Source: an uncultured Planctomycetia bacterium (GTDB lineage: Bacteria > Omnitrophota > Gorgyraeia > 1-14-0-20-64-10). Taken from it: a DNA stretch of 64,000 nt. The position numbers and the translations under genes were made by a program. Every line of letters begins with the position of its first letter. The stretch's first letter is position 1. Positions 3,096 to 60,000 of this stretch are shown one piece after another. A model generated the notes under the pieces. That model did no database searches. It saw only the letters and a program-made list of their open reading frames with translations, and had not been told where the DNA came from. Location of the stretch: contig CAYJWF010000001.1 in the NCBI GenBank assembly GCA_964373805.1, positions 47,181 to 111,180 of the forward strand. Reading direction: 5' to 3'.

Positions 3096-5574
3096 CCGAT
3101 CCCTCCATCTCCAATTGGATGAGCCGGTTGAGTTCCACCGCGTACTCGAGCGGCAGCTCCTTGGCGAATGCCTCAAAGAAGCCGTTCACAATCATCGTGG
3201 TCGCCTCCTGCTCTTTAAGTCCTCGGCTCATCAGGTAGAACAGCTGCTCCTCCCCCACCTTGCTCACCGTCGCCTCGTGTTCGATCCGCACCTGTTCGGC
3301 ATCAATCTCCATGGTGGGATAGGTATCCGATCGGGAGATTTCGTCCATCAGCAACGCATCGCAGCGAACCGAAGATTTCACATGCTCGGCCTGAGGATAG
3401 ACCTTCACCAACCCTCGGTAGCTGGTGCGGCCGCCGTCTTTGGAGATCGACTTTGACAGGATCGTGGAGCTGGTTTCTGAAGCGGCATGAACCATCTTGG
3501 CTCCGGCGTCTTGGTGCTGGCCCTTGCCAGAAAACGCCACCGAAACGACTTCCCCTCGGGCCTTGCGCCCCATCAAATAAACCCCGGGGTACTTCATGGT
3601 CAGCTTTGAGCCCAAATTTCCATCGAGCCATTCAACGATCGCATTCTCATAGGCGATGGCCCGTTTTGTGACCAGGTTGTACACGTTCTTTGACCAGTTC
3701 TGGATTGTCGTGTATCGGATGTGCGCGTGGGGCATGGCCACGAGCTCCACCACCGCCGAGTGAAGGCTGTCGGACGAATAGGTAGGAGCCGTGCAGTTGT
3801 GGACGGCAAAACCACGAGCCAGGTAAGCGTTCGGCGCACGGTCCATCTCGATGTTAAAGACCGGTCCTTCATAAGGAGCACGTCGAATTTCTTTCACCGG
3901 TACAAGGAAGGAATCTCCTTGGCGGCGGACTTCACCCATCTGCCTATTGGGGGAATAATAAATGATGTACTGATCCTGCCGAGTTATGGGTCGCCCCAGG
4001 ATCGTATCCTTTCCTCCTTTACGTAAGGAGATGGTTGCGTAATGGCCTTGACGTGCCAGAAGCTCCTGGAGCTGTCGAGCCAAGTTCAAAGAAACAGTCG
4101 AAGCGCGGAGCATGGTATGGGCTCGCCGATACCAACTCCCATCCCCCAGAAAGTACGTCTCCAACAGATGAGCCTGTTTCTCTGGTGGAAGCTCCATGAT
4201 CGTCTTGCTCAGCTGCTTCGTCGATGCCCCTTTGCCGCAGCTTTCAAGGCAAAGCTCCCTGAGAGGGCGGGAGTAGACTACCACGTTAATTCCATGTTTC
4301 TTGCGGTCTACGACTTCCATAGCCCGCTTGCCCGTCACCTCGCGAATAAGTTTCTTGGCCTCTTCCACCAGGGCCCGGTCTGTGGAGCCGAATGAGAGTG
4401 CGACAACCGGCATCCGCAGGGTCTTGTGGACAAACGTAGATCCTTCGGCCAGGTAGTAGCCTAGGAGGCGCAGAGCAGGTACGGTGTACCGAGGATCATC
4501 TTGGGTCTTCTTTGGGATTGGGAAGACGATGAAATCTCCTCGCTGAAGTTTGCCCGCTTCTATGAAATGGGGTTCCGTTGTAAGAAGCTTGGAGGTGCTC
4601 ACCTCTCCAAGCCAGTGGCCGCGCGCTTTCCGGGCGACGCGAACATCCTCTCGCTGGACACCCAGCACAGGGTGCTCCGGTGTGAGGCGAAAGCTGTTTC
4701 CAGAAGACAGTGGCTGGATCGTGATCAGCTCGCCACGGTAGGGACGCACGCGACTGGCCGCAACCTTTGCCTCCTCACCGTTACTGTTCAAAACGCTGTC
4801 GCCTGGCTGGATCGATTCGATGTTTACCCAGCGTTGGCCGGTAGAAACCTGTTCGCCTGCAGGCAGGCATCCCTCTATGTAATGCACGCTGGATCCCTCG
4901 TCGGCGATGATCAAGGTCCGTTCGAACTGGCCCATGTTCTCCGCGTTGATTCGGAAATAGGCCTGCAAGGGAATGGCTACCTTCACCCCTTTCGGAACGT
5001 AGATAAAGCTTCCTCCCGACCAGACCGCGGAGTTTAAAGCGGAAAACTTGTTGTCCGCTGAGGGGATCACCGTGCCAAAGTACTTTTTCACCAACTCCGG
5101 ATATTTCTTGAGGCCATCGTCCATCCCAAGGAAGATGACCCCTTGTTTCTCGAGATCTTCTCGAAGAGAGTGGTACACGACCTCAGACTCGTATTGGGCG
5201 GTGACCCCCGCGAGGAACTTCCGTTCCGCCTCTGGGATTCCCAATTTTTCAAAGGTGTTCTTGATATCCTCGGGAACCTCCTCCCAGCTTTTCTCCTGTT
5301 TATCCACCGGCTTCAGGTAGTAATGGATGTTGTCGAAGTGGATCTGGGAAAGGAGCGTCAAATCGGCCCAGGCCGGTAAGGGCTTCCGGTTGAAATGTTC
5401 CAGCGCCTTTAATCGAAGTTCCCGCATCCAATCCGGTTCCGACTTCATCCAGGAGATCTCCTCCACCACTTCCTTGGAGAGGCCCTTCTTGGCCTTGAAG
5501 AGGTAATGCTCCGGATCGTGGAATCCGTACTTCTCTTCGTAGTCTTTCCCGATATTGAGCGGTTTATCCGTCAT
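3088..5574 (-). CDS. sufB: Fe-S cluster assembly protein SufB interrupted by an intein (extein 470 aa + intein 358 aa)
   Basis: 828 aa instead of ~470; SufB N- and C-terminal halves; conserved EGC|TAP site split by insert beginning CLPAG and ending VHN followed by CTAPTYSS. Confidence 0.9.
3796..4869 (-). mobile_element. intein with LAGLIDADG homing-endonuclease domain inside sufB
   Basis: Insert residues 236-593: N-terminal Cys (codon 4867-4869), C-terminal His-Asn (3796-3801) followed by +1 Cys (3793-3795); two LAGLIDADG motifs [10 protein letters not shown] and [10 protein letters not shown]; exteins rejoin to canonical SufB ...[13 protein letters not shown]... Confidence 0.85.
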
Positions 5575-6332
5575 GGGGTAACCATCTCCTTTTTCGGTTC
5601 GTACGGCGCGTAGCCGTGTTTCTCCAGCTCGTGGGCCAGCTCCTTGCCGCCGGAACGGATGATCTGGCCGTTGATCAAAACGTGAACGAAATCCGGCTGC
5701 ACGTAATTTAAAATCCGCTGGTAATGGGTGATTACCAAAACTCCCAGCTCCGGCCCTTTCAGGCGATTGATTCCATCGGCCACGGTGCGCAGGGCATCGA
5801 TGTCGAGTCCGGAGTCGGTCTCATCCAGGATGGCCAGCTCCGGTTTGAGGAGCGCCATCTGGAGAATCTCGTGCCGCTTCTTCTCCCCTCCGGAGAAGCC
5901 GTCGTTGACGTATCGGGTGGCAAAGCTCTCATCGATCTCGAGATGGGCCATGGCCGCTTTAAGCTGCTTGCGAAACTCCTTTGACGCGAAGCCCTCCCCA
6001 AACCGGGCCTTCATTGCGGTCCGTAAGAAGTTGGCCACGCTCACCCCCGGGATGGCGGTGGGATACTGGAAGGCCAAGAAGATTCCAGCTCGGGCTCGCC
6101 CATCGATTTTGAGAGTCGTCAAGTCCCCTCCCTTGTAGAGGATCCGACCCTGGGTTACCTGGTACTTCGGGTGTCCCATTAAGGAATTGGAGAGGGTCGA
6201 CTTCCCAGAGCCGTTTGGGCCCATCAAGGCATGGACCTCCCCCTTCTGCACGGTAAGGGAAATCCCTTTCAGGATCTCCTTCCCATCGATCTCTGCGTGG
6301 AGATTCTCGATTTGAAGCAAAGGGGCGCTCAT
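5571..6332 (-). CDS. sufC: Fe-S cluster assembly ATPase SufC
   Basis: 253 aa ABC ATPase with Walker [10 protein letters not shown], signature FSGGEKKR, Walker [11 protein letters not shown]. Confidence 0.9.
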
Positions 6333-6338
6333 CGCGGA

Positions 6339-6815
6339 TCAGCTCTTTAAAGGCGGGGTGAGCCAGGTCATCCGTTGGCCTAAGGTCTGACGGATCTTGG
6401 CCTCCGACCCCATTAAATCCGACAGGAAAGTTCCATCCAGAAAGGCCTGAATGGCCATGGTCAGCGTCTCCCACGCGGATCGGATGCAGCACTCATCGAT
6501 GTGGATACAACTGGAACGATTTCCCGTGAACTGATGGCAGATCTCCTCGGTGTTGGGGACTTTTCCTAGGGCCCGAACCACGTTGCCCAGGCTGATCTCC
6601 TGGGCGTGGCGATTGAGGAGATACCCCCCTCTCATCCCTCGGACCGAGTGGATCAAGCCCGCTCGGCCGAGCAGGCGAAGCAGCTTCTCCACGTAGGCTG
6701 GGGAGAGGCCTTCCTTCAAGGCGATCGCCTTGACGGTTAACCCCCCCTTCTCCTCGGCCTGGGCCAGCTGCAACAAGCACCTTAAGCCATACTCTTCTTG
6801 CGCCGTGATCTTCAT
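6339..6815 (-). CDS. Rrf2-family transcriptional regulator (IscR/SufR-like)
   Basis: Rrf2 N-terminus MKITAQEEYGLRCLLQLA and three Cys in C-terminal half; start moved to ATG 6815 (ORF-track start 6941 reads through a palindromic repeat). Confidence 0.75.
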   Translation of the reverse strand: MKITAQEEYGLRCLLQLAQAEEKGGLTVKAIALKEGLSPAYVEKLLRLLGRAGLIHSVRGMRGGYLLNRHAQEISLGNVVRALGKVPNTEEICHQFTGNRSSCIHIDECCIRSAWETLTMAIQAFLDGTFLSDLMGSEAKIRQTLGQRMTWLTPPLKS

Positions 6816-6920
6816 CCTATAATCTAGGATACCAGGAAACATGACTCTTTTGTCAACTATTTTCATGGGGTCTGACCCCATGGGGTTGCAGGGCGTTTTA
6901 CAATTTGATACAGTACGTCT

Positions 6921-7454
6921 ATGATCCTTAAAGTAACCCAATTAGGACACCCAATTCTTCGCCTGAAGGCGAAACCAGTTCCAGTCGGGAGAATTACCAC
7001 TTCCCCCTTTCAGGCTTTCCTGGAGGATTTGGGTTCGACCCTGCACGAATACAATGGGGTAGGGATCGCTGCTCCTCAGGTTCATGTCTCCCTCCAGGTG
7101 GCGGTGATCGAGGTCGACCGGAACCCCCGATACCCGAAGGCCCCCAGGATCTCACGGACGATCCTCATCAATCCCCGCGTCAAACCGATCGGAAAACTCA
7201 AGGCATTCGACTGGGAAGGATGCCTTTCGGTCGACGGCTTTCGCGGACGCGTTCCACGCTGGCGTTCGGTAGAGGTTCAGGCGTATAATGCCCGCGGTGA
7301 ACCAATTCGGATCAAGGCGCACGGTTTTTTTGCCCGGGTGATTCAACACGAATGGGATCACCTGCAAGGAAAGGTGTATCTGGATCGGATGGAGGATCTT
7401 TTGACCCTGACGCATCTTACCGAATATACGCGCTATTGGCAGAGCCATGGTTAA
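6921..7454 (+). CDS. def: peptide deformylase
   Basis: GVGIAAPQV, EGCLS and HEWDHLQG motifs. Confidence 0.85.
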   Translation: MILKVTQLGHPILRLKAKPVPVGRITTSPFQAFLEDLGSTLHEYNGVGIAAPQVHVSLQVAVIEVDRNPRYPKAPRISRTILINPRVKPIGKLKAFDWEGCLSVDGFRGRVPRWRSVEVQAYNARGEPIRIKAHGFFARVIQHEWDHLQGKVYLDRMEDLLTLTHLTEYTRYWQSHG

Positions 7455-7845
7455 GGTAGAGAAGCAGCTTTCAATTTTTCTGGAGAATCGGCCCGGCGGA
7501 TTGGCCAAGATCTGCGGCACCTTGGCCGAGGCTGGGATCAACGTCTTGGCCTTGTCGATCCACGACACCGTGGACCATGCCATCATTCGGCTCCTGGCCG
7601 ATCGGCCGGTCAAAGCGCTGCTCATCCTGGAGCAGTTGGGGCTTTACATCCTGGAGTCGGATGTCGTCGTCGTGGAGTTGGACAACCGATCCGGGGCGTT
7701 GGCCGATGTGGCCCGGAAGCTGGCCCGGGCCGATATCAACATCGAGTACGCCTACTGCTCGGCCACCGAGCATCAACCCATGGGGAGCCTCATCCTCCGG
7801 ACCGATGAGGCGGACCGAACCCTGGAACTTTTGAGCGAGACGTAG
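7447..7845 (+). CDS. ACT-domain protein
   Basis: 132 aa, two ACT-like beta-alpha-beta-beta-alpha-beta units (LENRPGGLAKI..., VELDNRSGALADV...). Confidence 0.6.
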   Translation: MVKVEKQLSIFLENRPGGLAKICGTLAEAGINVLALSIHDTVDHAIIRLLADRPVKALLILEQLGLYILESDVVVVELDNRSGALADVARKLARADINIEYAYCSATEHQPMGSLILRTDEADRTLELLSET

Positions 7846-7851
7846 GTTTTA

Positions 7852-7890
7852 GGGTCAGACCCCGGCACTTGGGGGTCTGACCCTTTAGAT
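7852..7890 (+). terminator. rho-independent terminator-like hairpin built from two inverted GGGTCAGACCCC units
   Basis: gggtcagacccc ggcacttg ggggtctgaccc followed by tttagatttt, directly after the ACT gene stop. Confidence 0.6.
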
Positions 7891-7905
7891 TTTCAGGAGG
7901 AAACC

Positions 7906-8460
7906 ATGGCTCTTCAATTGATGGATGCGATTCCTTCCTTTAACCTGCCTGCCACCGATGGGAAGACCTATTCTCTGGACTCCTTTTCGTCCGCCAAACT
8001 CCTCGTGGTGATCTTCAGTTGCAACCACTGTCCCTATGTTCAGGCGTACGAGGATCGGATGATCGCCCTCCAACGGGATTACGGCCCCAAAGGGGTTCAG
8101 TTGGTGGCGATCAATTCCAATGAGACAGGGAACCATCCAGAGGATGATTTTCCTCACATGGTGGAGCGCTCCAAGGCGAAGGGATTTAACTTCCCGTATC
8201 TGCGGGACGAAACCCAGGAAGTGGCCCGTGCCTACGGGGCGGAGCGAACCCCGCACATCTTCCTCTTCGAAAAGGTGCCTGGCACCATTTCAGAAGGTGC
8301 CAGGCACCGACTCCGCTACACCGGCCGGATCGACGACAACTGGCAGAACCCATCCGCGGTCAAGTCCCATGATCTGAGAAACGCCCTCGATGCCCTCCTC
8401 GCCGGCAAGGAACCCCCCTCGAACACCCCCGCCATCGGCTGCACCGTCAAGTGGAAGTAG
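7906..8460 (+). CDS. thioredoxin-family thiol-disulfide oxidoreductase with 12-aa in-frame hairpin-encoded insert
   Basis: CNHCP active site, C-terminal GCTVKWK; insert VPGTISEGARHR encoded by palindrome 8274-8308. Confidence 0.7.
   Translation: MALQLMDAIPSFNLPATDGKTYSLDSFSSAKLLVVIFSCNHCPYVQAYEDRMIALQRDYGPKGVQLVAINSNETGNHPEDDFPHMVERSKAKGFNFPYLRDETQEVARAYGAERTPHIFLFEKVPGTISEGARHRLRYTGRIDDNWQNPSAVKSHDLRNALDALLAGKEPPSNTPAIGCTVKWK
8274..8308. repeat. hairpin of two 13-mers GGTGCCTGGCACC / GGTGCCAGGCACC inside CDS
   Basis: ggtgcctggcacc atttcagaa ggtgccaggcacc. Confidence 0.8.
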
Positions 8461-8615
8461 TCCATCGTGAGAGCAGTAGCGATAAGGGAGAAGGAAGAAC
8501 TCTTCCGATTGTTGGATAAATTTGAGCGTCGATCCAGAGCCCTTGGACTGACAGAGGCCGATGTTGCCCAAGGGGTGAAGGTCTATCGAAAGGAGCGGAA
8601 GCTTTCGCGGAAAAC

Positions 8616-8843
8616 CTGAAGTTCCTGGAATGCGCCGTCGCCGGCCACGCCCAATTTCCAGTTACCGATGGGCAGGTTCGTCAAACGGCGCTCTACCCTG
8701 AGCGAACCATGGCTGGGTATAGGGGTCGTAAGATTGCAGAAAAGGCGATGGATGCCGAGCATGCTTTGCGAGTAGTTTACGAAGAGCGACCAGGAGAACT
8801 TGAGGTGATCACTTTTTATCCGGTACGGAGGAAACGCTTATGA
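8616..8843 (+). pseudogene. DUF4258-like toxin gene remnant (no convincing start codon)
   Basis: Frame ending TGA 8841-8843 encodes ...HALRVVYEERPGELEVITFYPVRRKRL typical of DUF4258 C-termini; only in-frame ATG (8709) would give 44 aa; stop overlaps ATG of the DUF2283 gene. Confidence 0.3.
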
Positions 8844-9052
8844 GAATCGGCTATGATCGTGAAAAAGACATTCTTTTAATCGAAGTTTCCAGGAAGCCAA
8901 TTGATCATGCAGAGGAACTCGGGCCACTCATCGTCCACTTCTCTCGGCAGGGCCATCCGGTACTTCTTGAAGTCTTGGATGCGAGCGACTTTTTGTCGGC
9001 GGCAACCAAGGTGACGGCGAGAGCAAAGACGGAACAGCTTGTTCCTCTCTGA
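8840..9052 (+). CDS. DUF2283-family small protein (usual partner of DUF4258)
   Basis: MRIGYDREKDILLIEV...LLEVLDAS pattern of DUF2283. Confidence 0.6.
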   Translation: MRIGYDREKDILLIEVSRKPIDHAEELGPLIVHFSRQGHPVLLEVLDASDFLSAATKVTARAKTEQLVPL

Positions 9053-9118
9053 GATTTCTACGGGAAAGCTGCGTAATTTCGCCATCCCTTTCTACTGAGC
9101 GTGGTAAACTACTGCTCG

Positions 9119-9550
9119 ATGTTCACCCTCGAGAAATCTCTCGAAAAACTGGCCAAGGCGCACCGGGAGATCGTGGCCCTTTATCTGTTTGGATCTCAGG
9201 CCACGGCGAAGAAGGGGCCTTTGAGTGATGTAGACGTCGCTCTGTTACTGGATGAGGGACGGGTCCAGCCTCGGAAACGATTCGATCTTCAGCTTGAGCT
9301 GCTCGGCGAGGCGATGCACCGTTGTAGGCGATCCGATGTCGACCTGGTGTTGTTGAACGAGGCAACCCCCTTGTTGGCCTACGAAGTGATCCGATCCGGT
9401 CGGCTCCTTTACGAGCGGGACCACGATGCCCGCGTTTCCTTTGAGGCCAAGGCACTTCAACATTACCTGGATCTAGAGCCGTTCTACCGGGTTGGTCGCC
9501 AGTACCTCAGGCACCAGCTTCTTCATGCAAAGGGGCATGGTCAATCCTGA
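9119..9550 (+). CDS. nucleotidyltransferase (MntA-like antitoxin)
   Basis: LFGSQATAKKGPLSDVDVALL minimal NTase motif; start moved to ATG 9119. Confidence 0.7.
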   Translation: MFTLEKSLEKLAKAHREIVALYLFGSQATAKKGPLSDVDVALLLDEGRVQPRKRFDLQLELLGEAMHRCRRSDVDLVLLNEATPLLAYEVIRSGRLLYERDHDARVSFEAKALQHYLDLEPFYRVGRQYLRHQLLHAKGHGQS

Positions 9551-9950
9551 GGTCGTTGCCAATCGGCTGAGTAGACTTAAGGAGTACCTGGGCTATCTGC
9601 GCAGCCTCCGGCGCTATCCTTACAAGCGGTTTTCCAGTGATCCCTTTATTCGAGGCAGTGCCGAGCGGTACCTTCATTTGGCCATTGAGTGCTGCCTGGA
9701 CATGGGCAACCACCTGATCGCGGACCGGGAGCTTCGCAAGGCCCAGGATTACCGAGAGGTATTTCTCATCCTGGGGGAAGTCAAGATCCTTCCTCCCGCG
9801 TTTGCCAAGCGGATCGCTCCCATGGGAAGCTTCAGGAACATCCTCGTTCACGATTATCTGCGAGTAGATCCGAAGAAGGTGTACGAGTTCCTGCACAAGC
9901 ACCTTGCCGATTTCACCCGGTTCGCCACGGCCATGGCGAAGTTCCTTTAG
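9537..9950 (+). CDS. HEPN-domain toxin (HepT/DUF86)
   Basis: FRNILVHDY (Rx4-6H HEPN motif); overlaps upstream NTase gene; start moved to ATG 9537. Confidence 0.7.
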   Translation: MVNPEVVANRLSRLKEYLGYLRSLRRYPYKRFSSDPFIRGSAERYLHLAIECCLDMGNHLIADRELRKAQDYREVFLILGEVKILPPAFAKRIAPMGSFRNILVHDYLRVDPKKVYEFLHKHLADFTRFATAMAKFL

Positions 9951-10874
9951 GTGAAGGGTGGCCTTCTTTTCTTGCCGCGGTACCTAGAGCATGAGGCGGG
10001 CAAAGGGCATCCGGAGTCGCCGGAGCGGCTGAAGGCGGTCTGGGAACATCTCCAAGCGGTCGGCCTGACAAAGCAGCTTGAGCTTATCGAGCCGAGCCTC
10101 CACGATCTGAACTGGATCGAGACGATCCACGATCCTGCCTATATCCGAAGGGTAAAGGAATCCTGTGAACGAGGAGATTCCCATATCGATTCGCCGGATG
10201 TTGGAATTTGTCGGGCCTCCTTCGAGATCGCGAAACTGGCGGTGGATGGGGCCTTGACCTTGGTGGATTGGGTGACGGACGGAGAAGTTCGACGGGGGTT
10301 TGGGTTGATCCGGCCGCCGGGGCATCACGCGGAGAGGGATCGAGCCTTAGGGTTTTGCCTGTTCAACAACATCGCCATCGCGGCGCGGTACGCCCAGAAG
10401 CAGTACGGCCTCAAGAAGGTCCTGATCCTCGATTGGGACGTCCACCATGGCAACGGCACCCAACACGCCTTCGAGAAGGACCCTTCTGTTCTTTATGTCA
10501 GTACCCACCAGTGGCCCCTTTACCCAGGGACCGGCCGCCGCGAAGAGAAGGGAACGGGGAATATCCTGAACATTCCGTTACCACCGGAATCTGGGGATTC
10601 CGAGCATCTCAAGGCCTTTCAGGAAGAAATCCATCCGGCCGTCGAGGCGTTTCGGCCGGAGCTCATCTTGATCTCTGCCGGGTTTGACGCCCACGTCAAC
10701 GACCCTCTGGCCAACATGTCGGTAACCGAGATGGGATACCGCCGCATGACCGGGTTTGCGGTTCGGTGGGCCGAGGATTACGCGCAAGGACGGATCGTTT
10801 CTCTCCTCGAAGGGGGATACCATCTGCCCTCCTTGGCCCGTTCGGTCCAGGCTCACTTAGAGGCGATGTTTTGA
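9951..10874 (+). CDS. histone deacetylase-family protein (AcuC/HDAC-like)
   Basis: PPGHHA, DWDVHHGNGTQ, ISAGFDAH motifs; GTG start. Confidence 0.8.
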   Translation: MKGGLLFLPRYLEHEAGKGHPESPERLKAVWEHLQAVGLTKQLELIEPSLHDLNWIETIHDPAYIRRVKESCERGDSHIDSPDVGICRASFEIAKLAVDGALTLVDWVTDGEVRRGFGLIRPPGHHAERDRALGFCLFNNIAIAARYAQKQYGLKKVLILDWDVHHGNGTQHAFEKDPSVLYVSTHQWPLYPGTGRREEKGTGNILNIPLPPESGDSEHLKAFQEEIHPAVEAFRPELILISAGFDAHVNDPLANMSVTEMGYRRMTGFAVRWAEDYAQGRIVSLLEGGYHLPSLARSVQAHLEAMF

Positions 10875-10875
10875 C

Positions 10876-10947
10876 GGGGTCAGACCTGTACCAGGTACAA
10901 AATCGGCTCAACTTTTAAAAAGTTAGGCCCAAATTGTACCTGGTACC
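10876..10947. repeat. MITE-like palindromic element (GGGGTCAGACC + GTACCAGGTAC ... AACTTTTAAAAAGTT ... GTACCTGGTAC)
   Basis: Terminal inverted 12-13-mers around AT-rich central palindrome; near-identical copy at 48459-48521. Confidence 0.7.
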
Positions 10948-10963
10948 ATATAATGTCTCCTCG

Positions 10964-12634
10964 ATGTCGCTGACCCTCGTTGCGGGAATCGTTCTGATCC
11001 TCTTCGGACTGGCCTACTTGGGTTACAGCCGGCTGTTGGCCAGGAAAGTGGGCTTAGACGACGCCCAGCCGACCCCAGCCTGCACGATGACCGATGGAAT
11101 CGACTTTGTCCCGGCCAAGGCTCCCTTCCTGTTGGGCCAGCATTTCTCGGCCATCGCCGCGGCCGGCCCGATTGTGGGACCGATCCTGGCGGGGCTCTCC
11201 TTTGGATGGCTGCCCACCTTGCTCTGGATCGTTTTGGGGGCAATCTTTATCGGGGCGGTTCACGATTTCTCCAGTTTGATCGGATCGGTTCGTCATCAAG
11301 CACAGTCGGTGGCCGAGATCGTTCAGCGGCACATCGGCCAGCGGGCCTACCTTTTGTTCCTCGGCTTCATCTGGCTCTCCTTGGTCTACGTGATCACCGC
11401 GTTCGCGGATCTCACCTCCAGCTCCTTCGCCGAACCGGTCTACGGGGGCGGGGTAGCCACCTCTTCGGTCCTCTATCTCGGATTAGCGATTTTAATGGGA
11501 ATCCTCGTCACTCGACTCGGAATGCCGTTAAGAATCGCCACCTTGATCTTTATCCCGGTTCTGGCCGTGGTGATCTGGATGGGGCAGGCGGTTCCGATCC
11601 GATTGCCGGCCCTACCCGGGATCCGACCGGTTCTGGTCTGGGATGGGATTCTGTTGGGATACTGTTTCTTGGCCTCGGTGCTGCCGGTTTGGCTGCTCCT
11701 TCAGCCCCGAGGCTATTTGGGTGGAGTCTTCCTCTATACAGCGCTGGGTGCTGGTTTGGTGGGGTTGGCCTTAGGCGGGATGCGGGTCAACTACCCGGCC
11801 TTTATCGGGTGGTCGGGATCAAGCGGTTGGCCCTTGTTTCCAATGCTGTTCGTCACCGTGGCCTGTGGAGCCTGTTCCGGTTTCCATGGATTGGTCTCCT
11901 CGGGGACCACCTCCAAGCAGATCGCCAGGGAGAGCGATTGCCGGTCGATCGGTTACGGAGGAATGTTGCTGGAAGGGTTGGTGGCCCTCATTGCTCTGGC
12001 CACGGTGATGATGTTGGCCCCAGCCGATGCCGCGACCAAACTTTCGCCCGACCGGATCTACGCGCAAGGGTTGGCCACCTTCGTGGAGCAGTTTGGGATC
12101 AATCCCCAATTCGCGATGGCCTTTGTCCTGCTCGGCTTTGCCACCTTTATCTTCGACACCCTGGATGTGGCCACCCGTCTAGGAAGGTACATCCTTCAGG
12201 AGCTGTTTGGATGGAAAGGTTCCTGGGGTCGGATCTGGGCGACTCTGGTGACGCTCGCCCTTCCGGCCTGGTGCGTCACCGCTACCGTGACCGACGCCAG
12301 CGGGAAGCTCCTCCCGGCCTGGAAGGTATACTGGACGGTGTTCGGGACCTCGAATCAGTTGCTGGCCGCCCTTACCCTGCTGGGGTTGACAGCGTGGTTG
12401 AAGAAAAGTGGAAAGCCATGGGGATTCGCTGCGGTCCCATGCGCCTTCATGATGGGAATGACCGTCTGGGCATTGGGGATTCTGATTCAAAGTTGGTGGA
12501 CCAAAGGGATGGCCGGCCAAGGGGCCCTTTTGGATCCGGTGGGGATGGCTTGTCTGCTGCTTATGGCGCTGGCTCTCATTCTCTTTAAGGAAGGGATCGA
12601 GGCCCTTCGAAAAAGCGGATGCGTAAAGCCGTAA
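10964..12634 (+). CDS. cstA: carbon starvation protein A
   Basis: Polytopic membrane protein with CstA N-terminal signature; start moved to ATG 10964 downstream of the repeat element. Confidence 0.8.
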   Translation: MSLTLVAGIVLILFGLAYLGYSRLLARKVGLDDAQPTPACTMTDGIDFVPAKAPFLLGQHFSAIAAAGPIVGPILAGLSFGWLPTLLWIVLGAIFIGAVHDFSSLIGSVRHQAQSVAEIVQRHIGQRAYLLFLGFIWLSLVYVITAFADLTSSSFAEPVYGGGVATSSVLYLGLAILMGILVTRLGMPLRIATLIFIPVLAVVIWMGQAVPIRLPALPGIRPVLVWDGILLGYCFLASVLPVWLLLQPRGYLGGVFLYTALGAGLVGLALGGMRVNYPAFIGWSGSSGWPLFPMLFVTVACGACSGFHGLVSSGTTSKQIARESDCRSIGYGGMLLEGLVALIALATVMMLAPADAATKLSPDRIYAQGLATFVEQFGINPQFAMAFVLLGFATFIFDTLDVATRLGRYILQELFGWKGSWGRIWATLVTLALPAWCVTATVTDASGKLLPAWKVYWTVFGTSNQLLAALTLLGLTAWLKKSGKPWGFAAVPCAFMMGMTVWALGILIQSWWTKGMAGQGALLDPVGMACLLLMALALILFKEGIEALRKSGCVKP

Positions 12635-15491: not shown

Positions 15492-15526
15492 GGGTGCCAG
15501 GCACCATTTTCGGATGCCTGGCACCC
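15492..15526. repeat. GGTGCCAGGCACC-type hairpin (12-bp stem) in divergent intergenic region
   Basis: gggtgccaggca ccattttcgga tgcctggcaccc. Confidence 0.7.
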
Positions 15527-19826: not shown

Positions 19827-20339
19827 CTAAACCTGAGGGGTCTGACCCCATTTGGTTTTCTTTTCGAGGGTTATAAAACTGAAGGGGTATGGGTTCTCTT
19901 GATCCGGGGAAAAATCCTCCCGAGAGGCTTCCTGCCAGACCGAGCGATCCAAAGAGAATAGAGGTGTATCCCCCGGAAAATCATGGTGGATCAAGGTGAG
20001 GTAGATGCGATTCGCGAACGGCAAGGCCTGCTCAAAGATCTGGCCACCGCCAATGACAAAGACCTCCTCGTCTCTCTCACAGAGGCGAAGCGCTTCCTCC
20101 AAGGAGTGGGCCACCAAGCCGTCTTGAGCTCTGAAATCGCTCTGTCGGGTGACGACCACGTTGGTTCTACCGGGCAAGGCCTTTCCGATCGATTCGTATG
20201 TTTTTCGTCCCACGATGATGGGGTGGTTCATGGTGAGTTGCTTAAAGTGCTTCAGATCCGCGGGCAAGTGCCACGGGAGCCGATTCTTGTTTCCGATGAC
20301 CCCGTTTTGGGAAGCTGCACAAAGGATGGAGATCATCAC
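19827..20339 (-). CDS. folA: dihydrofolate reductase
   Basis: [14 protein letters not shown]...[13 protein letters not shown] signature; last 8 codons plus stop supplied by the 13-mer repeat. Confidence 0.8.
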
Positions 20340-22637: not shown

Positions 22638-22672
22638 GTCATTGCGAGGAACGATGGTGACGAAGCAATCTC
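22638..22672. repeat. REP-like repeat family copy (GTCATTGCGAGGAACGATGGTGACGAAGCAATCTC)
   Basis: Family consensus GTCATTGCGAGGARCGAAGTGACGAAGCAATC; other copies 27483-27560, 44254-44322, 45811-45860, 49228-49263. Confidence 0.75.
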
Positions 22673-24077: not shown

Positions 24078-25886
24078 ATGGATTTTAAGCAGCTAGAACC
24101 GAAGGCGGCCGAGATCATCGCGCGGTACGAGCAGAAACAGGCGGCGATGCTGCCACTTTTGTGGCTCCTCCAGGAGAGGATCGGCTACATTCCCGTGGAG
24201 GGGGAGGCCTGGGTTTCGGAGAAGTTGGGCGTCAGCATCGCCCATGTGGATGAGGTTGTCTCCTTCTATACCCTGTTCCATCGAAAGCCGGTTGGTAAAC
24301 ACCACATCCAGGTTTGCACGACGCTCCCCTGCCTCTTAAACGGGGCCAAACAGGTTTTGGCCCAATTGGAGGAACGGCTAGGAATCGGGGTAGGGAAGAC
24401 TTCTTCCGATGGGAAGGTGACCCTTTCCACGGTTGAGTGCCTCTGCGCCTGCGAAGTGGCGCCGGTGGCCCAGGTCAACGACCGATACGTAGGGCCGTTG
24501 ACCCCGGAGTCGGTCCCGTCCTTCCTAAAAACGGTGTCTGACACCTCGCAGTTGCGAGAAGCGGTGTCAGACACCACCTACGTTTCCACCGATGGGCCGG
24601 TTCTCTCCAGGCGATTCAGGAACGCCGAGGGGAACTGGTTTGATGCCTATGTCGCCGATGGAGGGTATCAAGCGGCGAAGAAGGCGCTGACCTCCATGAC
24701 GCCTCAACAGGTGATCGACGTCGTCTCCCGGTCGAACCTTCGTGGACTGGGAGGGGCAGGCTTTCCGACTGGAAAGAAATGGGGGTTTGTCCCCAAGAAC
24801 AGCGCGAAGCCGGTCTATTTGGTGGTCAACGCCGATGAAGGGGAACCAGGCACTTTCAAGGATCGGTACATTCTGGAGCGGGACCCCCATGCCCTGATGG
24901 AAGGGATGATCATCGCTGCTTACGCCATTGGGGCGCACAAGGCGTACGTCTACGTTCGGGGGGAGTACGTCCGGCCGTTCCACCGGTTCTCGCAAGCGGT
25001 CCAAGAAGCTACCCAACACGGATGGCTGGGGAAGAAGATCCAGGGAACCAGTTTTGACCTGGAGGTGGTGGTTCATCGAGGGGCTGGGGCCTACATCTGT
25101 GGGGAAGAGACGGCCCTGTTGACCTCTCTCGAAGGAGGCAAAGGTTTCCCCAAATTAAAGCCGCCGTTTCCGGCGATCTCTGGGCTTTTCAAGTGTCCCA
25201 CCATGGTGAACAACGTGGAGACCCTGGCCTGTGTTCCACCGATCGTTCGAAACGGTCCCGAGTGGTTTGCGAAGCTGGGAACCCTTAAGCAGGGAGGGAC
25301 CCGCCTGTTCAGCCTCTGTGGGCATGTCAACCGTCCTGGCCTATACGAGGCCCCGGTGGGGGTAAGCTTAAGGGAGCTCATCTATCATCATGCCGAAGGG
25401 ATTCGAGGAGGCCGCGAGCTTAAGGCGGTTGTCCCCGGCGGAATCTCGGCCAAGATCTTGACCGCCCAGGAGATCGATGTGGGCATGGACTTCGATTCGC
25501 TTTCGGCGGCCGGGACGATGGCCGGATCGGCCGGGGTGATTGTGATGGATGAGACGACCTGCATGGTGGAGGCCCTGGTGAGCGCGGCCCGCTTTTTTGC
25601 CGATGAGTCCTGCGGGCAATGTTCCCCTTGCCGGGAAGGGACCGGCTGGATCCTGAAGATCCTGACTCGGATGAAGGAGGGCCAGGGCCGTCCGCAAGAT
25701 TTGGAGAGTCTCCTTTCCATTGCGGGGAACATGGAGGGCAAGACGATCTGCGTCTTTGCCGATGCGGCCGCTTGGCCGGTGCAGAGCTACATCACGAAGT
25801 TCCGGGAAGAGTTTGAATACCACGTCCGAGAGGGGCGGTGCGATTTAGAGGATCACCCGTTCGTCCTTAAGCATGTCGAAGGATAA
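24078..25886 (+). CDS. nuoEF: fused NADH-quinone oxidoreductase subunits E and F
   Basis: N-terminal 24-kDa NuoE (CTTLPC...CLCACEVAP) and C-terminal NuoF (GLGGAGFPTG, CGQCSPCREG) in one 602-aa ORF; junction carries a palindromic repeat. Confidence 0.8.
   Translation: MDFKQLEPKAAEIIARYEQKQAAMLPLLWLLQERIGYIPVEGEAWVSEKLGVSIAHVDEVVSFYTLFHRKPVGKHHIQVCTTLPCLLNGAKQVLAQLEERLGIGVGKTSSDGKVTLSTVECLCACEVAPVAQVNDRYVGPLTPESVPSFLKTVSDTSQLREAVSDTTYVSTDGPVLSRRFRNAEGNWFDAYVADGGYQAAKKALTSMTPQQVIDVVSRSNLRGLGGAGFPTGKKWGFVPKNSAKPVYLVVNADEGEPGTFKDRYILERDPHALMEGMIIAAYAIGAHKAYVYVRGEYVRPFHRFSQAVQEATQHGWLGKKIQGTSFDLEVVVHRGAGAYICGEETALLTSLEGGKGFPKLKPPFPAISGLFKCPTMVNNVETLACVPPIVRNGPEWFAKLGTLKQGGTRLFSLCGHVNRPGLYEAPVGVSLRELIYHHAEGIRGGRELKAVVPGGISAKILTAQEIDVGMDFDSLSAAGTMAGSAGVIVMDETTCMVEALVSAARFFADESCGQCSPCREGTGWILKILTRMKEGQGRPQDLESLLSIAGNMEGKTICVFADAAAWPVQSYITKFREEFEYHVREGRCDLEDHPFVLKHVEG
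24533..24575. repeat. hairpin of two 13-mers GGTGTCTGACACC / GGTGTCAGACACC with inner palindrome, at nuoE-nuoF junction
   Basis: ggtgtctgacacc tcgcagttgcgagaagc ggtgtcagacacc; codes KTVSDTSQLREAVSDTT. Confidence 0.75.
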
Positions 25887-27503: not shown

Positions 27504-27560
27504 CGAAGCAATCCCGTTTTAAGGACGAGATTGCTTCGCCCCTGCGGGGCTCGCAATGAC
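27483..27560. repeat. REP-like repeat, inverted pair between nuoG and nuoH
   Basis: gtcattgcgaggagcgaagtgacgaagcaatc ... gagattgcttcgcccctgcggggctcgcaatgac; supplies nuoG TGA and nuoH ATG. Confidence 0.8.
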
Positions 27561-28638: not shown

Positions 28639-29382
28639 ATGCCGCGTAAACGGGAACTGACGTTCTGGGAACGAATTTACCTACCGGAGATTGTCCGGGG
28701 GGTGTGGATTACCTCTCGTCACTTCTTCGTTAATCTCTTTCTCCACACGGCACATCTCTTTGGGCTGTTCAAGGACCGCGCGGCCTCGGTCACCTTTCAG
28801 TATCCGGAGCAGCCCCGACCGTTGGCTCCCCGTTTAAGGACTCGGCATCGGTTAACGGTTCGGCCAGAGCCCCGCGCTGACGCGCGGGACTTTTCTGGAT
28901 TGGCCGCTGACGCAGCGGCTGGCGCTGTCGGAAGCGCCACCACGCGCTCCGGCGCAGCCAGAAACATAGAGGAAGGGACTCCCCGGTGTGTGGCCTGCAT
29001 GCTCTGCGAGACGGTCTGCCCGGCCAAATGCATCACGATCGTCGCTGGAGAGCACCCGGATCCGAACGTGGAGAAATATCCGATTCGGTTCGACATTGAT
29101 TTAGGGGTCTGCGTCTACTGCGGCTACTGTGTCGAGGCCTGTCCGGAGGATGCCATTCGGATGGACACCGAGATCCTGGACATCGCCGCCTATTCTAGGG
29201 CCCAGATGAAGCTGGACATCCATGAGCTCATGGATCCCAAGCTGCGCAAGCCGGTGAACCAGTGTGAACTAAGGTTTCCACACCAATGCGCCCTGCACGG
29301 TGGTCAGATGAAAGGGAACTGGCAAGACGTCTATGGGAAAACGGAACAGGGACTGTCCCCGCAGGGGACTGTCCCTGGCTAA
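28639..29382 (+). CDS. nuoI: NADH-quinone oxidoreductase subunit I with in-frame ~35-aa repeat-encoded insert and C-terminal extension
   Basis: Two 4Fe-4S motifs CVACMLCETVCP and CVYCGYCVEACP; insert PRADARDFSGLAADAAAGAVGSATTRSGAARN between N-terminal segment and first ferredoxin motif. Confidence 0.8.
   Translation: MPRKRELTFWERIYLPEIVRGVWITSRHFFVNLFLHTAHLFGLFKDRAASVTFQYPEQPRPLAPRLRTRHRLTVRPEPRADARDFSGLAADAAAGAVGSATTRSGAARNIEEGTPRCVACMLCETVCPAKCITIVAGEHPDPNVEKYPIRFDIDLGVCVYCGYCVEACPEDAIRMDTEILDIAAYSRAQMKLDIHELMDPKLRKPVNQCELRFPHQCALHGGQMKGNWQDVYGKTEQGLSPQGTVPG
28866..28972. repeat. single copy of the same ~105-bp palindromic element, in-frame inside nuoI
   Basis: gagccccgcgctgacgcgcgggacttttctggattggccgctgacgcagcggctggcgctgtcggaagcgccaccacgcgctccggcgcagccagaaacatagagg. 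Confidence 0.8.
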
Positions 29383-31704: not shown

Positions 31705-31708
31705 GAAT

Positions 31709-42623: not shown

Positions 42624-43609
42624 CGGTTATAGAAACCATGGAACGAAAACTGGGATGTGCCACCCGAGACGCGTACGGCCAGACCCTGGTCGAGTTGGGA
42701 AGAAACAATCCCCAGATCGTGGTGTTGGACGCGGATCTCGCCTCCTCCACGAGAACCCGGCTATTTGCCAAGGAGTTCCCGGACCGATTCTTTAATGTGG
42801 GGATCTCAGAGGCCAACATGGTGGGGATGGCCGGTGGGTTAGCTTCCTCTGGGAAAATCCCCTTTATCTCCAGCTTTGCCTGCTTCATGACCTGCAAGGC
42901 GTACGATCAGCTCCGGATGGCGGTGGCGTATCCCCATTTGAACGTCAAGGTGGTCGTTTCCCATGGTGGGATCAGCGTAGGAGAAGATGGAGTCTCCCAG
43001 CAGTCGATCGAAGACGTGGCCCTGATGACGTCGCTTGCCCATTTTACCGTGATCGTCCCGGCCGATGAGCATGCCACGCGGGCGCTGGTGAAGGAGGCCG
43101 CGTCAACGGTGGGGCCCATCTACCTTCGAACCGGAAGGCCCAAGGCCCCTTTGATCTATCAACAGTCGTCGGCCTTTTCCATGGGGAAAGGGAATCTGCT
43201 TCGCCAGGGAAAGGATGTCACCGTGATGGCCAACGGCCTATTGGTCTTTGAAGCGCTGGTGGCGGCCGAGGAGTTGGAGAAGGCAGGGATTTCCGCCGCC
43301 GTGGCGGATCTCCACACGGTTAAGCCGCTGGATGAGTCGCTGATTCTCTCTCAGGCGAAGGCCACCGGGGCGATTGTCACCGCCGAGGAGCACCAGATCT
43401 GGGGCGGCTTAGGTTCGGCGGTAGCCCGCATGGTAGCCCGGACGCATCCCGTTCCGATGGAGTTCGTGGCCATCCAAGACACCTATGCCGAATCGGGCAA
43501 GCCGGAAGAGCTGTTCGAAAAGTACGGGCTTACCTCCCAGCACGTCGTCGAGGCGGTCCGGCGGGTGTTGGAGAGAAAATCTAAAGGGGTCAGACCCCAT
43601 CAGCAATGA
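42620..43609 (+). CDS. transketolase, C-terminal (pyrimidine-binding) subunit
   Basis: Transketolase Pyr and C-terminal domains; last codons KGVRPHQQ encoded by GGGGTCAGACCCC repeat. Confidence 0.8.
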   Translation: MTVIETMERKLGCATRDAYGQTLVELGRNNPQIVVLDADLASSTRTRLFAKEFPDRFFNVGISEANMVGMAGGLASSGKIPFISSFACFMTCKAYDQLRMAVAYPHLNVKVVVSHGGISVGEDGVSQQSIEDVALMTSLAHFTVIVPADEHATRALVKEAASTVGPIYLRTGRPKAPLIYQQSSAFSMGKGNLLRQGKDVTVMANGLLVFEALVAAEELEKAGISAAVADLHTVKPLDESLILSQAKATGAIVTAEEHQIWGGLGSAVARMVARTHPVPMEFVAIQDTYAESGKPEELFEKYGLTSQHVVEAVRRVLERKSKGVRPHQQ

Positions 43610-46244: not shown

Positions 46245-46679
46245 ATGACCCGCCCTCCGGTGTTCATGAAAGGAAATCCTGATCTTGGGTATGGACATCC
46301 TAGGCCCTCCGGTGGGACGGAGTTGTACGCCTGGCTCTTCATGCGGCTCTCCGGGATTCTGCTGTTGGTGTTGGCCCTCGGGCATTTCTTCATCATGCAT
46401 CTTTTTAACAGCGTTCACACCATCGACTACGATTTTGTCGCGGCCCGGTACCTGGGACTTTTCTGGCGTGGCTATGATCTCGCCCTGCTGTGGCTGGCGA
46501 TGATCCACGGGATCAATGGAGCCCGCATGCTGGCCGACGATTACCTGCGTCCACCGGTTCGAGGGTGGGTGGTGAAGGGGCTGTATCTCGTGGGAATTTT
46601 GTTTCTGGTGTTGGGCACTTGGGTGATTGTAGCGTTCCAACCGATGGTGCCAGGCACCAAAACCCTGAAACTTTTATAA
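46245..46679 (+). CDS. sdhD: succinate dehydrogenase membrane anchor subunit
   Basis: 144 aa hydrophobic; position between sdhC and sdhA; last codons read into repeat. Confidence 0.65.
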   Translation: MTRPPVFMKGNPDLGYGHPRPSGGTELYAWLFMRLSGILLLVLALGHFFIMHLFNSVHTIDYDFVAARYLGLFWRGYDLALLWLAMIHGINGARMLADDYLRPPVRGWVVKGLYLVGILFLVLGTWVIVAFQPMVPGTKTLKLL

Positions 46680-46691
46680 AGTTAAGCCAAA

Positions 46692-46705
<14 letters not shown>
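46646..46705. repeat. MITE-like element: GGTGCCAGGCACC ... AACTTTTATAAAGTT ... GGTGCCAGGCAC
   Basis: Spans sdhD stop and sdhA start; supplies ATGGTGCCAGGCAC = MVPGT. Confidence 0.7.
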
Positions 46706-48458
<1,753 letters not shown>

Positions 48459-48521
48459 ATGGTACCAGGTACAATTTCGGCTCAACTTTTTAAAAGTTAT
48501 ACCGATTTTGTACCTGGTACC
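48459..48521. repeat. MITE-like element (GGTACCAGGTACA ... AACTTTTTAAAAGTT ... TGTACCTGGTACC)
   Basis: Between sdhA stop and sdhB; near-identical to 10887-10947. Confidence 0.75.
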
Positions 48522-59025: not shown

Positions 59026-60000
59026 ATGGTTTCCAGCCGGTCGCCGTACATCAGGCATCTGTTTGTCTGCGTGAATCAGCGGGATCCCGGTGTGACCTGC
59101 TGTTCTCACACTGGCGGGGAGGCGATCCTGGAGGAGCTTAAAGGCTACGTGAAGGCCAACGGATTACAGGGAAAGGTGCGGGTGAGCAAGTCCGGCTGCA
59201 TGGACCTTTGCGCGCAGGGGCCGAACGTGATGGTGGAGCCGGACCACCGGTGGTACCGCCATGTGATGCTGGAGGATGTGGAGAAGATTATTGAGAAAGA
59301 GCTTAAACCGCTCATGCAAAAGGGGTCAGACCCCTTCTGGTCTCTATCGGTGCCAGGTCTTAGACCTGGCACCGATTTCCCATCTGCCCAGCCGATCCGC
59401 GCCTTTCTCTTTGATCTGGGCAACGTCTTGGTTCAGTTTGACCACCTGCGGGCGGCCGAGCGGATCGCGGCCAACGCGAAGGTAACCCCAGAAGAGCTGT
59501 ACCGGCTGTTCTTTGAGTCTCCCCTGATCATCGAGCACGATGAAGGCAAGATCTCGACCGCCACCTTTTTCGAACGGTTGAAGGCCCAGATTGGGTTATC
59601 CCTGTCTTTTGGAGAATTCTTGGAAATCTGGAATGGGATCTTCACCGAGAATCGGCCGGTCGCCCAATTGGTCCGACGGTTGCTCGCCCAGTACCCCTGT
59701 TATCTCATCTCGAATACCAACCGGCCCCATTTCGAACATTGCGTTGAACGTTATCCGGTGCTCAAGGAGCTCACCGGGCGGATCTTATCCTATGAAGTGG
59801 GGGTGTTGAAGCCGCATCCGAAGATTTATCGCCGGGCATTGGAGCTGGCCCAGATACCGCCTTCCCAGATCTTCTACGTGGACGATCGAGCCGATCTCAT
59901 TGAGGCCGGTCGGTCGATCGGGTTCCAGGTGCATCGGTTTACCGACACCGAGGGACTTCTTTCCGAGTTGAAGGCCAAGGGGATCAACCACGGAGTTTAG
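59026..60000 (+). CDS. fusion ORF: thioredoxin-like [2Fe-2S] ferredoxin domain + HAD-family hydrolase, joined through palindromic repeats
   Basis: N-terminal CxxC...C...C ferredoxin-like (CCSHTGGE...SGCMDLCAQGPNV); C-terminal FLFDLGNVLV...DD HAD motifs; linker KGSDPFWSLSVPGLRPGT encoded by GGGGTCAGACCCC and GGTGCCAGGTC-tta-GACCTGGCACC; possible internal GTG start at 59350. Confidence 0.55.
   Translation: MVSSRSPYIRHLFVCVNQRDPGVTCCSHTGGEAILEELKGYVKANGLQGKVRVSKSGCMDLCAQGPNVMVEPDHRWYRHVMLEDVEKIIEKELKPLMQKGSDPFWSLSVPGLRPGTDFPSAQPIRAFLFDLGNVLVQFDHLRAAERIAANAKVTPEELYRLFFESPLIIEHDEGKISTATFFERLKAQIGLSLSFGEFLEIWNGIFTENRPVAQLVRRLLAQYPCYLISNTNRPHFEHCVERYPVLKELTGRILSYEVGVLKPHPKIYRRALELAQIPPSQIFYVDDRADLIEAGRSIGFQVHRFTDTEGLLSELKAKGINHGV
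59322..59373. repeat. GGGGTCAGACCCC 13-mer plus GGTGCCAGGTC-tta-GACCTGGCACC hairpin inside fusion ORF linker
   Basis: Seen directly at 59322-59334 and 59349-59373. Confidence 0.75.

Follow-up and report, generated by a model that had tools for sequence, protein, structure and literature searches.

A perfect 35-bp hairpin in the gene for a thioredoxin-like protein, at positions 8274-8308 of a 64,000-nucleotide (nt) stretch of contig CAYJWF010000001.1 (assembly GCA_964373805.1, uncultured Planctomycetia bacterium; the whole stretch is called the window), is by sequence comparison a lineage-specific in-frame insertion. The hairpin is probably a copy of a non-autonomous family of small palindromic repeats, similar to repetitive extragenic palindromes (REP), to their inverted doublets (REPIN) or to miniature inverted-repeat transposable elements (MITE), that was tolerated in a permissive loop. 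This reading is carried by the insertion itself, the repeat family in the window, the presence or absence of copies at orthologous sites, the translation of other copies and the position of the insert in the fold. The gene and the insert are as follows.

7906..8460, plus strand: thioredoxin-like gene (Redoxin/AhpC-TSA/Thioredoxin_8), 184 residues, with an intact CNHCPYV motif.
8274..8308, no strand: 35-bp perfect hairpin GGTGCCTGGCACC-ATTTCAGAA-GGTGCCAGGCACC, a short-form doublet, from the sequence and inverted repeat I11.
8275..8301, plus strand: the net inserted 27 nt (V124-A132), placed by alignment, the exact boundaries being ambiguous by a few bases.

The host protein matched the Pfam families Redoxin (1.9e-18), AhpC-TSA (9.5e-18) and Thioredoxin_8, with a Thioredoxin_2 match slightly under its curated cut-off, and it matched the PDB entry 2CVB at 2.7e-41. 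The original prediction, made from the letters alone, had described a perfect 35-bp hairpin, in frame and encoding VPGTISEGARHR, and the sequence bears this out exactly. Positions 8274-8286 (GGTGCCTGGCACC) and 8296-8308 (GGTGCCAGGCACC) are complementary at 13 of 13 positions around the loop at 8287-8295 (ATTTCAGAA), each arm is itself an odd palindrome around a central A/T, and 12 codons of the open reading frame (ORF) 7906-8460 on the plus strand read through the hairpin as VPGTISEGARHR. The local fold had an energy of -29.7 kcal/mol as RNA (z = -6.3) and -17.9 kcal/mol as DNA. Features of an intrinsic terminator were not found at 8274-8308, which is followed by GACTCCGC and lies in the middle of the coding sequence.

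Homologs were predicted to read straight through this point, and the segment was missing from all 119 other homologs among the matches listed, from three syntenic relatives and from three crystal-structure homologs. The predicted size of 36 nt, or 12 residues, had to be corrected: judged from 17 homologs, the relatives' DNA and the PDB entries 2CVB and 2YWI, the 12 hairpin codons stand for three ancestral codons, a net gain of nine codons or 27 nt. In an alignment of 18 family members, all others read FLFD(Q/E)-(N/K)R(K/R)-LRYTG where the host protein reads FLFEK-VPGTISEGA-RHR-LRYTG, and all 50 invariant positions of the family, CNHCPYV included, were kept in the host protein. The nearest database relatives have 175 residues vs. 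184 here, and the nine-residue gap is also present in the crystal-structure homologs 2CVB (Thermus) and 2YWI (Geobacillus). An equivalent segment in unrelated taxa, which would speak against an insertion, did not appear among the 120 family members listed: 113 had the canonical length at the insert site, six had four or five additional, unrelated residues and only the host protein had nine. At the DNA level, the syntenic relatives L001, L002, and L004 (82-85% nucleotide identity), which have kept the gene order Rrf2, deformylase, ACT-domain gene, thioredoxin-like gene, toxin-antitoxin pair and deacetylase, have a 27-nt gap facing positions 8275-8301, and their codons AAGCGCCGC and AATCGGAAA are aligned to AGGCACCGA of the right arm.

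An AlphaFold2 model of the host protein (mean predicted local distance difference test score of 92.4) superposed on 2YWO/2CVB in Foldseek with a template modeling score of 0.90 and a root-mean-square deviation of 1.3 A. Two strands of the model, residues 117-124 and 133-140, are joined by an unstructured stretch (residues 125-132), and the insert is therefore predicted to form the tip of a beta-hairpin. Judging by the thioredoxin fold as it is known, the turn that holds the insert would be distant from the CxxC site. In the model, the nine added residues simply extend a surface loop or hairpin of the thioredoxin-like protein.

The arms of the hairpin belong to a repeat family in the window. 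A family of 13-bp odd palindromes of the form GG-NNN-C-W-G-N'N'N'-CC had been proposed, and both an excess over expectation and the completion of half-sites indicate that it is real, with a fifth variant (NNN = GGA) to be added. The building block is GGNNNC-W-GNNNCC, in which positions G2, C6, G8, and C12 are invariant, and the half-sites in the window are GGGGTC, GGTGCC, GGTGTC, GGTACC, and GGGGAC. Exact CWG-centred 13-mer palindromes numbered 13, compared to 2.4 +/- 1.6 expected and a maximum of eight in 100 first-order Markov simulations, and the doublet pattern had five matches over both strands, at three loci, vs. none in 100 shuffles. Half-sites were completed by their exact reverse complement in four of seven cases for GGTGCC+W (these completions read exactly GGCACC), four of 13 for GGGGTC+W and two of five for GGTGTC+W, the chance being 1/4096 each. 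Between variants, changes come in pairs (positions 3/11, 4/10, and 5/9), and no intermediates changed on one side only were seen. A count of pair covariation on the 13-mers was dropped as proof in favor of the half-site test, since it was circular: the 13-mers had been chosen for palindromy.

About 12 loci of the family were present in the 64 kb, mostly at gene boundaries, and the identical 13-mer of the thioredoxin-gene hairpin occurred at three other loci. Seven doublets have complementary arms, with the same variant in both arms of each, and fold energies of -29 to -41 kcal/mol. The architectures include singles (6867, 19837, 43586, and 59322), short doublet hairpins (7851-7884, 8274-8308, 15493-15525, 24533-24575, and 59346-59376) together with a direct pair (29348-29376), and long forms of about 61 bp with a AACTTTTWAAAAGTT centre (10887-10947, 46646-46706, and 48461-48521). 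The three long forms have a common interior and 13-bp ends; the 48461 copy, when reverse-complemented, shares about 90% identity with the one at 10887. Short forms are without the central 26 nt or so of the long form, and because their loops, ATTTCAG and ATTTTCG, align to the start of the long-form interior, ATTTCGG, they look like internal-deletion derivatives. The copies listed in the original prediction were all present, although three positions were off by one (7851, 10887, and 15493 rather than 7852, 10888, and 15492), the copy at 10876 is a truncated 11-mer, the one at 59349 is a split variant, GGTGCCAGG-TCTTAGA-CCTGGCACC, and a pair of GGGACTGTCCC at 29348/29364 had been overlooked. Apart from the thioredoxin-gene hairpin, the copies are as follows.

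6867..6879, no strand: single GGGGTCTGACCCC in the Rrf2-def divergent spacer, touching the likely Rrf2 start codon; absent in L002/L004, net +10 nt.
7851..7884, no strand: short doublet AGGGTCAGACCCC-8 nt-GGGGTCTGACCCT in the spacer that separates the thioredoxin-like gene from the ACT-domain gene; inverted repeat I10, RNA -30.3 kcal/mol.
10876..10947, no strand: truncated GGGGTCAGACC touching a 61-bp long form, between the deacetylase and cstA genes; inverted repeat I3; the long form at 10887 reads TGTACCAGGTACA - 35 nt with the AACTTTTWAAAAGTT centre - TGTACCTGGTACC.
15493..15525, no strand: short doublet GGTGCCAGGCACC-ATTTTCG-GATGCCTGGCACC upstream of a flavin reductase gene; inverted repeat I7, RNA -32.9 kcal/mol; its loop is similar to that of the 8274 copy.
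19837..19849, no strand: single GGGGTCTGACCCC, translated on the minus strand as the tail of DHFR (...KWGQTPQV*), just upstream of the aconitase start.
24533..24575, no strand: doublet GGTGTCTGACACC-17 nt-GGTGTCAGACACC in the NuoE-NuoF linker, translated in frame as VSDTSQLREAVSDT; inverted repeat I14; the fused NuoE-NuoF protein spans 24078-25886.
29348..29376, no strand: pair AGGGACTGTCCCC / GGGGACTGTCCCT in the C-terminal tail of NuoI (...GLSPQGTVPG*).
43586..43598, no strand: single GGGGTCAGACCCC, translated into the final residues (...KGVRPHQQ*) of the transketolase C-terminal subunit and lying 8 nt before the ATG of the following gene.
46646..46706, no strand: 61-bp long form with GGTGCCAGGCACC arms, forming the end of an Sdh membrane-subunit ORF (...MVPGTKTLKLL*) and the sdhA start (MVPGT...).
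48461..48521, no strand: 61-bp long form with GGTACCAGGTACA / TGTACCTGGTACC arms between sdhA and sdhB; inverted repeat I2, RNA -41.3 kcal/mol, z = -9.5.
59322..59376, no strand: single GGGGTCAGACCCC followed by the split hairpin ATCGGTGCCAGGTCT-T-AGACCTGGCACCGAT; inverted repeat I5; identical in two other assemblies.

Other copies differ from relatives at orthologous sites as well. None of the four contigs of relatives, L001-L004, contains such a 13-mer; the window has gained the 7851-7884 hairpin relative to L001 and to L002/L004 and the 6867 single relative to L002/L004. Possible TTTAG direct repeats bound the 7851-7884 doublet, and one TTTAG is present in the empty site of L001.

Several copies are translated. 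The linker of the fused NuoE-NuoF protein contains the 24533 doublet, and the copies at 59322 and 59346-59376 are both in frame, encoding KGSDPF...VPGLRPGT within the linker of a protein at 59026-60000 that is a ferredoxin-like/HAD fusion (Fdx-HAD). In NuoEF homologs with 70-79% identity, this linker has three GSDP motifs, one or two VPGT motifs, or VSDT. The linker DNA reads GGGGTCAGACCCC-GT-GGGGTCTGACCCC-AC-GGGGTCTGACCCC in L199, GGTACCAGGTACC-GGGGC-GGTACCTGGTACC in L200 and GGTGTCTGACACC-26 nt-GGTGTCAGACACC in L201, whose NuoI tail also holds the same variant as 29348-29376. L199 and L201 come from the assemblies GCA_947085785.1 and GCA_947085735.1. Fdx-HAD homologs contain VPGT doublets at the equivalent position and also peptides of other palindromic repeats (VIASEAKQS...PRNDG and PEPVEGER...SSGRTE). 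GGGGTC, GGTACC, and GGTGTC versions of the NuoEF and Fdx-HAD linkers in related lineages were confirmed at the DNA level, and within every single locus of this comparison both arms were of the same variant. An origin of the NuoE-NuoF and Fdx-HAD fusions from the elements was rejected, both architectures being ancestral in the clade.

The nuo genes have further features. A different, CGTC-tagged repeat at 27478-27560 (GTCATTGCGAGGAGCGAAGTGACGAAGCAATCC..., with 36-nt arms that are 81% complementary) supplies the tail of nuoG (...SSLRGAK*) with its first arm and the ATG of nuoH with its second, and peptides of this type (VIASEAKQS...PRNDG) reappear in the Fdx-HAD linkers of relatives. In the window, nuoD lies directly upstream of nuoEF with a 26-nt spacer; in the relative L200, a gene for a 110-residue GIY-YIG nuclease (65-397) lies directly upstream of nuoEF and overlaps its start, and this may be a small mobile nuclease gene. 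The 124-position Pfam profile of NuoC (22035-22619) was matched across 156 residues, and NuoD (22642-24051, 469 residues) was matched in two stretches, so NuoC and NuoD may each carry insertions; no 13-mer palindromes of the family were seen in these two genes.

Motifs of the family also occur far beyond this clade. Genomes, one per species, were scanned for TGCCWGGCAC-N8-38-TGCCWGGCAC (at least 120 loci) and metagenomes for two cores no more than 30 nt apart (at least 120 loci). Hosts of the TGCCWGGCAC doublets belong to at least 12 phyla among the matches listed and include cultured Bacillaceae, many Anaerolineae, Gaiellales/Thermoleophilia, Planctomycetota, Acidobacteriota, Myxococcota, and Gammaproteobacteria; Chloroflexota and Actinomycetota are also among the hosts of the same two cores, isolate genomes included. 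Lederbergia graminis KACC 13779 and Alkalihalobacterium elongatum MEB199 are examples of cultured carriers. GGGGTCWGACCCC and GGTGCCWGGCACC recur, frequently adjacent, across at least 12 phyla and more than 120 metagenome contigs, and GGGGTCWGACCCC was found beside GTGCCWGGCAC in loci picked for GTGCCWGGCAC alone. Raw match counts were rejected as proof of universality, as a composition-matched control palindrome doublet had 36 viral matches vs. 37 for the test pattern. Among the matches listed, both arms were the full 11-mer palindrome in 132 of 155 genome doublets vs. six of 29 viral ones, and the central W was flipped between the arms in 92 of the 155. The outer G...C that completes the 13-mer, which the pattern did not require, was strongly preferred.

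For the two-core metagenome scan we estimate a chance expectation of about 10-80 matches over the whole collection, depending on G+C content. Full 13-mers made up 65% of the listed metagenome matches for one core and 55% for the other, vs. about 12% by chance, and 67 of the 120 loci listed had at least three cores. In other genomes, 20-28% of the 13-mers centre longer palindromes vs. 1% of random positions, with stems that differ between lineages, and 13-mers with mixed halves were rare (10 vs. 227 homotypic). A tentative interpretation is that hairpin elements of many phyla form one undescribed family, with GGGGTCWGACCCC and GGTGCCWGGCACC and their paired variants GGTGTC, GGTACC, and GGGGAC as its core modules; the 13-mer would stay fixed, its surroundings diverge, the cores travel together and the elements enter the same linkers again and again, such as those of NuoE-NuoF and Fdx-HAD. 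If so, either a widespread trans-acting factor reads the palindromic core, or the palindrome propagates itself via host replication and repair only. A published description of the 13-bp family was not found in the literature: string searches with the 11- and 13-mers returned eukaryotic primers and similar only, with no bacterial repeat paper, and a hairpin-census paper (PMC13155455) did not mention the motifs. The CTGGCAC within the motif was considered as a sigma-54 -24 box and rejected, no TTGC being present at the -12 spacing. Many of the host phyla (e.g., Actinomycetota) are not known to have sigma-54.

Some individual loci were unusual. Chimeric 13-mers, in which GGGGTCAGGCACC is paired with GGTGCCTGACCCC, serve as hairpin arms in the metagenome loci L209, L222, and L294 and also in L305 and L206, which hints at exchange at the CWG centre. 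A putative viral contig (L154; IMG/VR UViG_3300002461_001168) has eight GGGGTCWGACCCC copies in 13 kb (2707-11370), mostly as 13-5/6-13 doublet hairpins; the motifs are otherwise rare in viral contigs. In L048 (5546-5770) and in L058, a metagenome-assembled genome of Solirubrobacteraceae, a tandem array of 33-bp units with GGGGTCAGACCCC adjoins one of 23-bp units with GGTGCCTGGCACC. In a soil metagenome contig (L208, 11230-11380), about 30 nt separate a pair of two-core hairpins from the gene for a 6S RNA (Rfam RF00013, 54 bits).

If the hairpin is a copy of a mobile repeat, two 13-bp blocks, inverted and with the central W flipped, would make up the doublet hairpin, of which long forms of about 61 bp and short forms exist. 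A short-form copy would have entered the beta-hairpin turn of the thioredoxin-fold gene after the split from the 82-85% identical relatives. With 12 codons in place of three and a net gain of 27 nt, the reading frame survived; since the nine residues appear only to lengthen a surface hairpin, the protein would not have been destroyed and the insertion could persist, presumably as a neutral or nearly neutral passenger. The same family may have colonized operon spacers, C-terminal tails, start-codon regions and inter-domain linkers across the window, where read-through is possible because the 13-mers are without stop codons in nearly all frames. We infer that copies spread by a hairpin-dependent, trans-catalysed process resembling transposition; the 13-bp singles are plausibly decayed doublets.

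Several points weigh against a mobile repeat. Comparison with Pfam revealed no transposase domain, Y1_Tnp or other, in about 50 ORFs of the window, the search of the source genome having covered these 64 kb; element-bearing loci totalling about 1.5 Mb likewise yielded no transposase. Genes flanked by clustered copies at L047, L135, L064, L051, and L111 were ordinary and had no Y1_Tnp, and neither a GTAG/CGTC tag nor any shared tetranucleotide was present beside any copy in the window. With no tag and no transposase in the window or by clustered copies elsewhere, the affiliation with REPs and their associated tyrosine transposases (RAYT) that the original prediction implied was not confirmed. 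No consistent target-site duplication was recognizable at 8274 or at the long forms, the sole candidate being the TTTAG at 7851-7884. Because the hairpin has 35 nt but the net gain is 27 nt, the right arm must coincide in part with ancestral codons, which is at odds with clean cut-and-paste of the complete hairpin. Transposition would also hardly produce singles of 13 bp or the L199 tandem arrays with 2-nt spacers unless secondary deletion or slippage followed. Together with the overlap of the right arm, the size of the gain, these singles and the arrays suggest a part for microhomology, slippage or template switching in how copies originate and decay. All-against-all clustering of the ORFs near elements at 240 loci revealed no recurrent neighbour gene.

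The insertion resembles known systems in part. Ogata et al. reportedly found, in 2000, Rickettsia palindromic elements (RPE) in protein-coding genes. As in RPEs and REPs within genes, a palindromic repeat is in frame, the gene is intact, the extra peptide lies in a permissive region and multiple genes of the genome are affected; like an RPE, the element leaves the ORF around it intact and in frame and is missing in orthologs. RPEs differ in that they are 100-150 bp and restricted to Rickettsia, whereas here the module is 13 bp, the insert 27-35 nt and the cores are present in many phyla. The REP and REPIN-RAYT systems are said to have been described by Bertels and Rainey, Nunvar, and Ton-Hoang. 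They share with the present family a small palindromic unit in many, mostly extragenic copies, hairpin-forming inverted doublets as in REPINs, placement between the genes of operons, and polymorphism between relatives. However, REPs are imperfect palindromes of 20-40 bp, with a 5' GTAG guide for a single-copy RAYT, and are largely lineage-specific, while the cores here are untagged, are conserved across phyla, and no RAYT was found in the 64 kb. Insertions of REPs and RPEs within genes are an established phenomenon, and the in-gene REPs described carry GTAG or CGTC tags, unlike the copies here (Di Nocera et al. 2013; PMC3733652).

The long forms at 10887, 46646, and 48461 have terminal inverted repeats around a conserved non-coding interior, as do MITEs. 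Correia and Nezha elements are bacterial MITEs that alter proteins, and the Coxiella QMITEs are further examples (PMC5896051). The likeness to MITEs extends from the 13-bp terminal inverted repeats and conserved interior to short forms that resemble internal-deletion derivatives and to the residues, stops and starts that are added. The elements here differ in that their 35-61 bp are below the typical size, their ends are themselves palindromes and there is no clear target-site duplication; no parent insertion sequence with matching ends was found within the window or in the 1.5 Mb of element-bearing loci. Yeast mitochondrial GC clusters and Allomyces double-hairpin elements are comparable organellar mobile hairpins. 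Such organellar elements are tiny GC-rich hairpins or double hairpins without coding capacity that, like the elements here, lie in spacers and at in-frame gene sites and recur across species, but they are mitochondrial and unrelated in sequence; sponge RHEs are a further case (PMC2800124).

An unlikely alternative is that the 13-mers are binding or modification sites of a conserved dimeric DNA-binding protein, akin to nucleoid or partition sites or to methyltransferase-linked palindromes of the HIP1 type, maintained by selection or biased repair, with the thioredoxin-gene copy as a by-product. Perfect two-fold symmetry, the many singles, the prevalence of homotypic halves (227 vs. 10), a Dcm-type centre, CCWGG, in two variants and the same cores with differing flanks in at least 12 phyla are all consistent with such sites. 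They would not lead one to expect doublets that keep inverted symmetry with the W flipped (92 of 155), conserved long-form interiors, gains at orthologous sites as blocks of 30-60 nt or five co-existing variants, for which five specificities would be needed. We know of no candidate protein for binding or modification of the 13-mer. HIP1 of cyanobacteria is likewise a short perfect palindrome with a wide phylogenetic range in coding and non-coding DNA, but it is an 8-mer spread evenly through genes, probably linked to an orphan methyltransferase, and forms neither hairpin doublets nor inserted blocks (PMC4390886; PMC5861425).

The hairpin could also have arisen in situ, by template switching that completed a quasi-palindrome together with a short tandem duplication, the ancestral codons (AGG CAC C...) acting as the seed. 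The alignment of the right arm with the relatives' codons fits this origin, as do the presence of AAGGTGCC twice, 22 nt apart (5 + 22 = 27), and the continuation of the left-arm palindrome into the native flank (GAAAAGGTGCC-T-GGCACCATTTC); the palindromic flanks of 13-mers elsewhere are what outward growth of a palindrome would give. We regard it as rather unlikely nonetheless: the identical 13-mer at three other loci in the window, the similar loop at 15493 and the 13-mer in hundreds of unrelated genomes make de novo convergence on the same 13 bases implausible, and a +5 frameshift intermediate would inactivate the gene.

It is quite doubtful that the hairpin is a selected element of the gene or mRNA, such as a translational pause, a signal for RNA stability or processing, or a useful protein loop. 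REP elements reportedly serve as regulators in 3' untranslated regions and of mRNA stability, the RNA structure within the coding sequence is very stable, and the arms have no mismatch despite 15% divergence from the nearest relative. Recent insertion, however, explains perfect arms equally, the insert is conserved in no relative or homolog, and identical modules occur in unrelated genes, spacers and tails with no common context. Rfam 15 had no match at the gathering score in the window or at the elements of 32 other loci, where only tRNAs and a 6S RNA were matched. An artefact of assembly or sequencing, such as a chimeric join or a fold-back read, is hardly credible: library artefacts can yield perfect palindromes and the contig was assembled from a metagenome, but contigs from the runs ERR4904391 and ERR4904392 had no mismatches to the window over 4.6, 11.3, and 5.7 kb with element copies within, the frame is preserved and the motifs are present in isolate genomes.

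Events of this kind are known, and the insertion in the thioredoxin-like gene, taken alone, adds a new example. The family behind it is of greater weight: its 13-bp modules are far shorter than classical REPs and without their defining tags, and it supplies stop and start codons, tails and linker residues to genes of the respiratory chain and central metabolism. If one mechanism underlies all copies, they would represent a very widespread class of selfish or structural DNA that the curated libraries searched do not recognize, and they would be a practical cause of false small ORFs and unusual protein extensions when metagenomes are annotated. Copies of the family are also natural experiments on sites of proteins that tolerate insertions.

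The window has other features besides the repeats. In an 827-residue SufB/SufD-family protein (3088-5574, minus strand), a LAGLIDADG_3 domain at residues 465-529 separates the N-terminal from the core domain of SufBD, and this segment is probably an intein in SufB; a second SufBD paralog is encoded at 1653-3176 on the minus strand. Modules of the defence or toxin-antitoxin type (nucleotidyltransferase/HEPN pairs, a lone HEPN, AAA_14-DUF4143, and AbiEii) lie amid housekeeping operons at 9101-9950, 40074-40499, 58257-59007, and 30484-33140, the 9101-9950 pair standing where the relatives L002-L004 have a PhdYeFM/ParE pair. A single ORF of 2835 residues (49638-58145, plus strand) lies directly downstream of the sdh genes.

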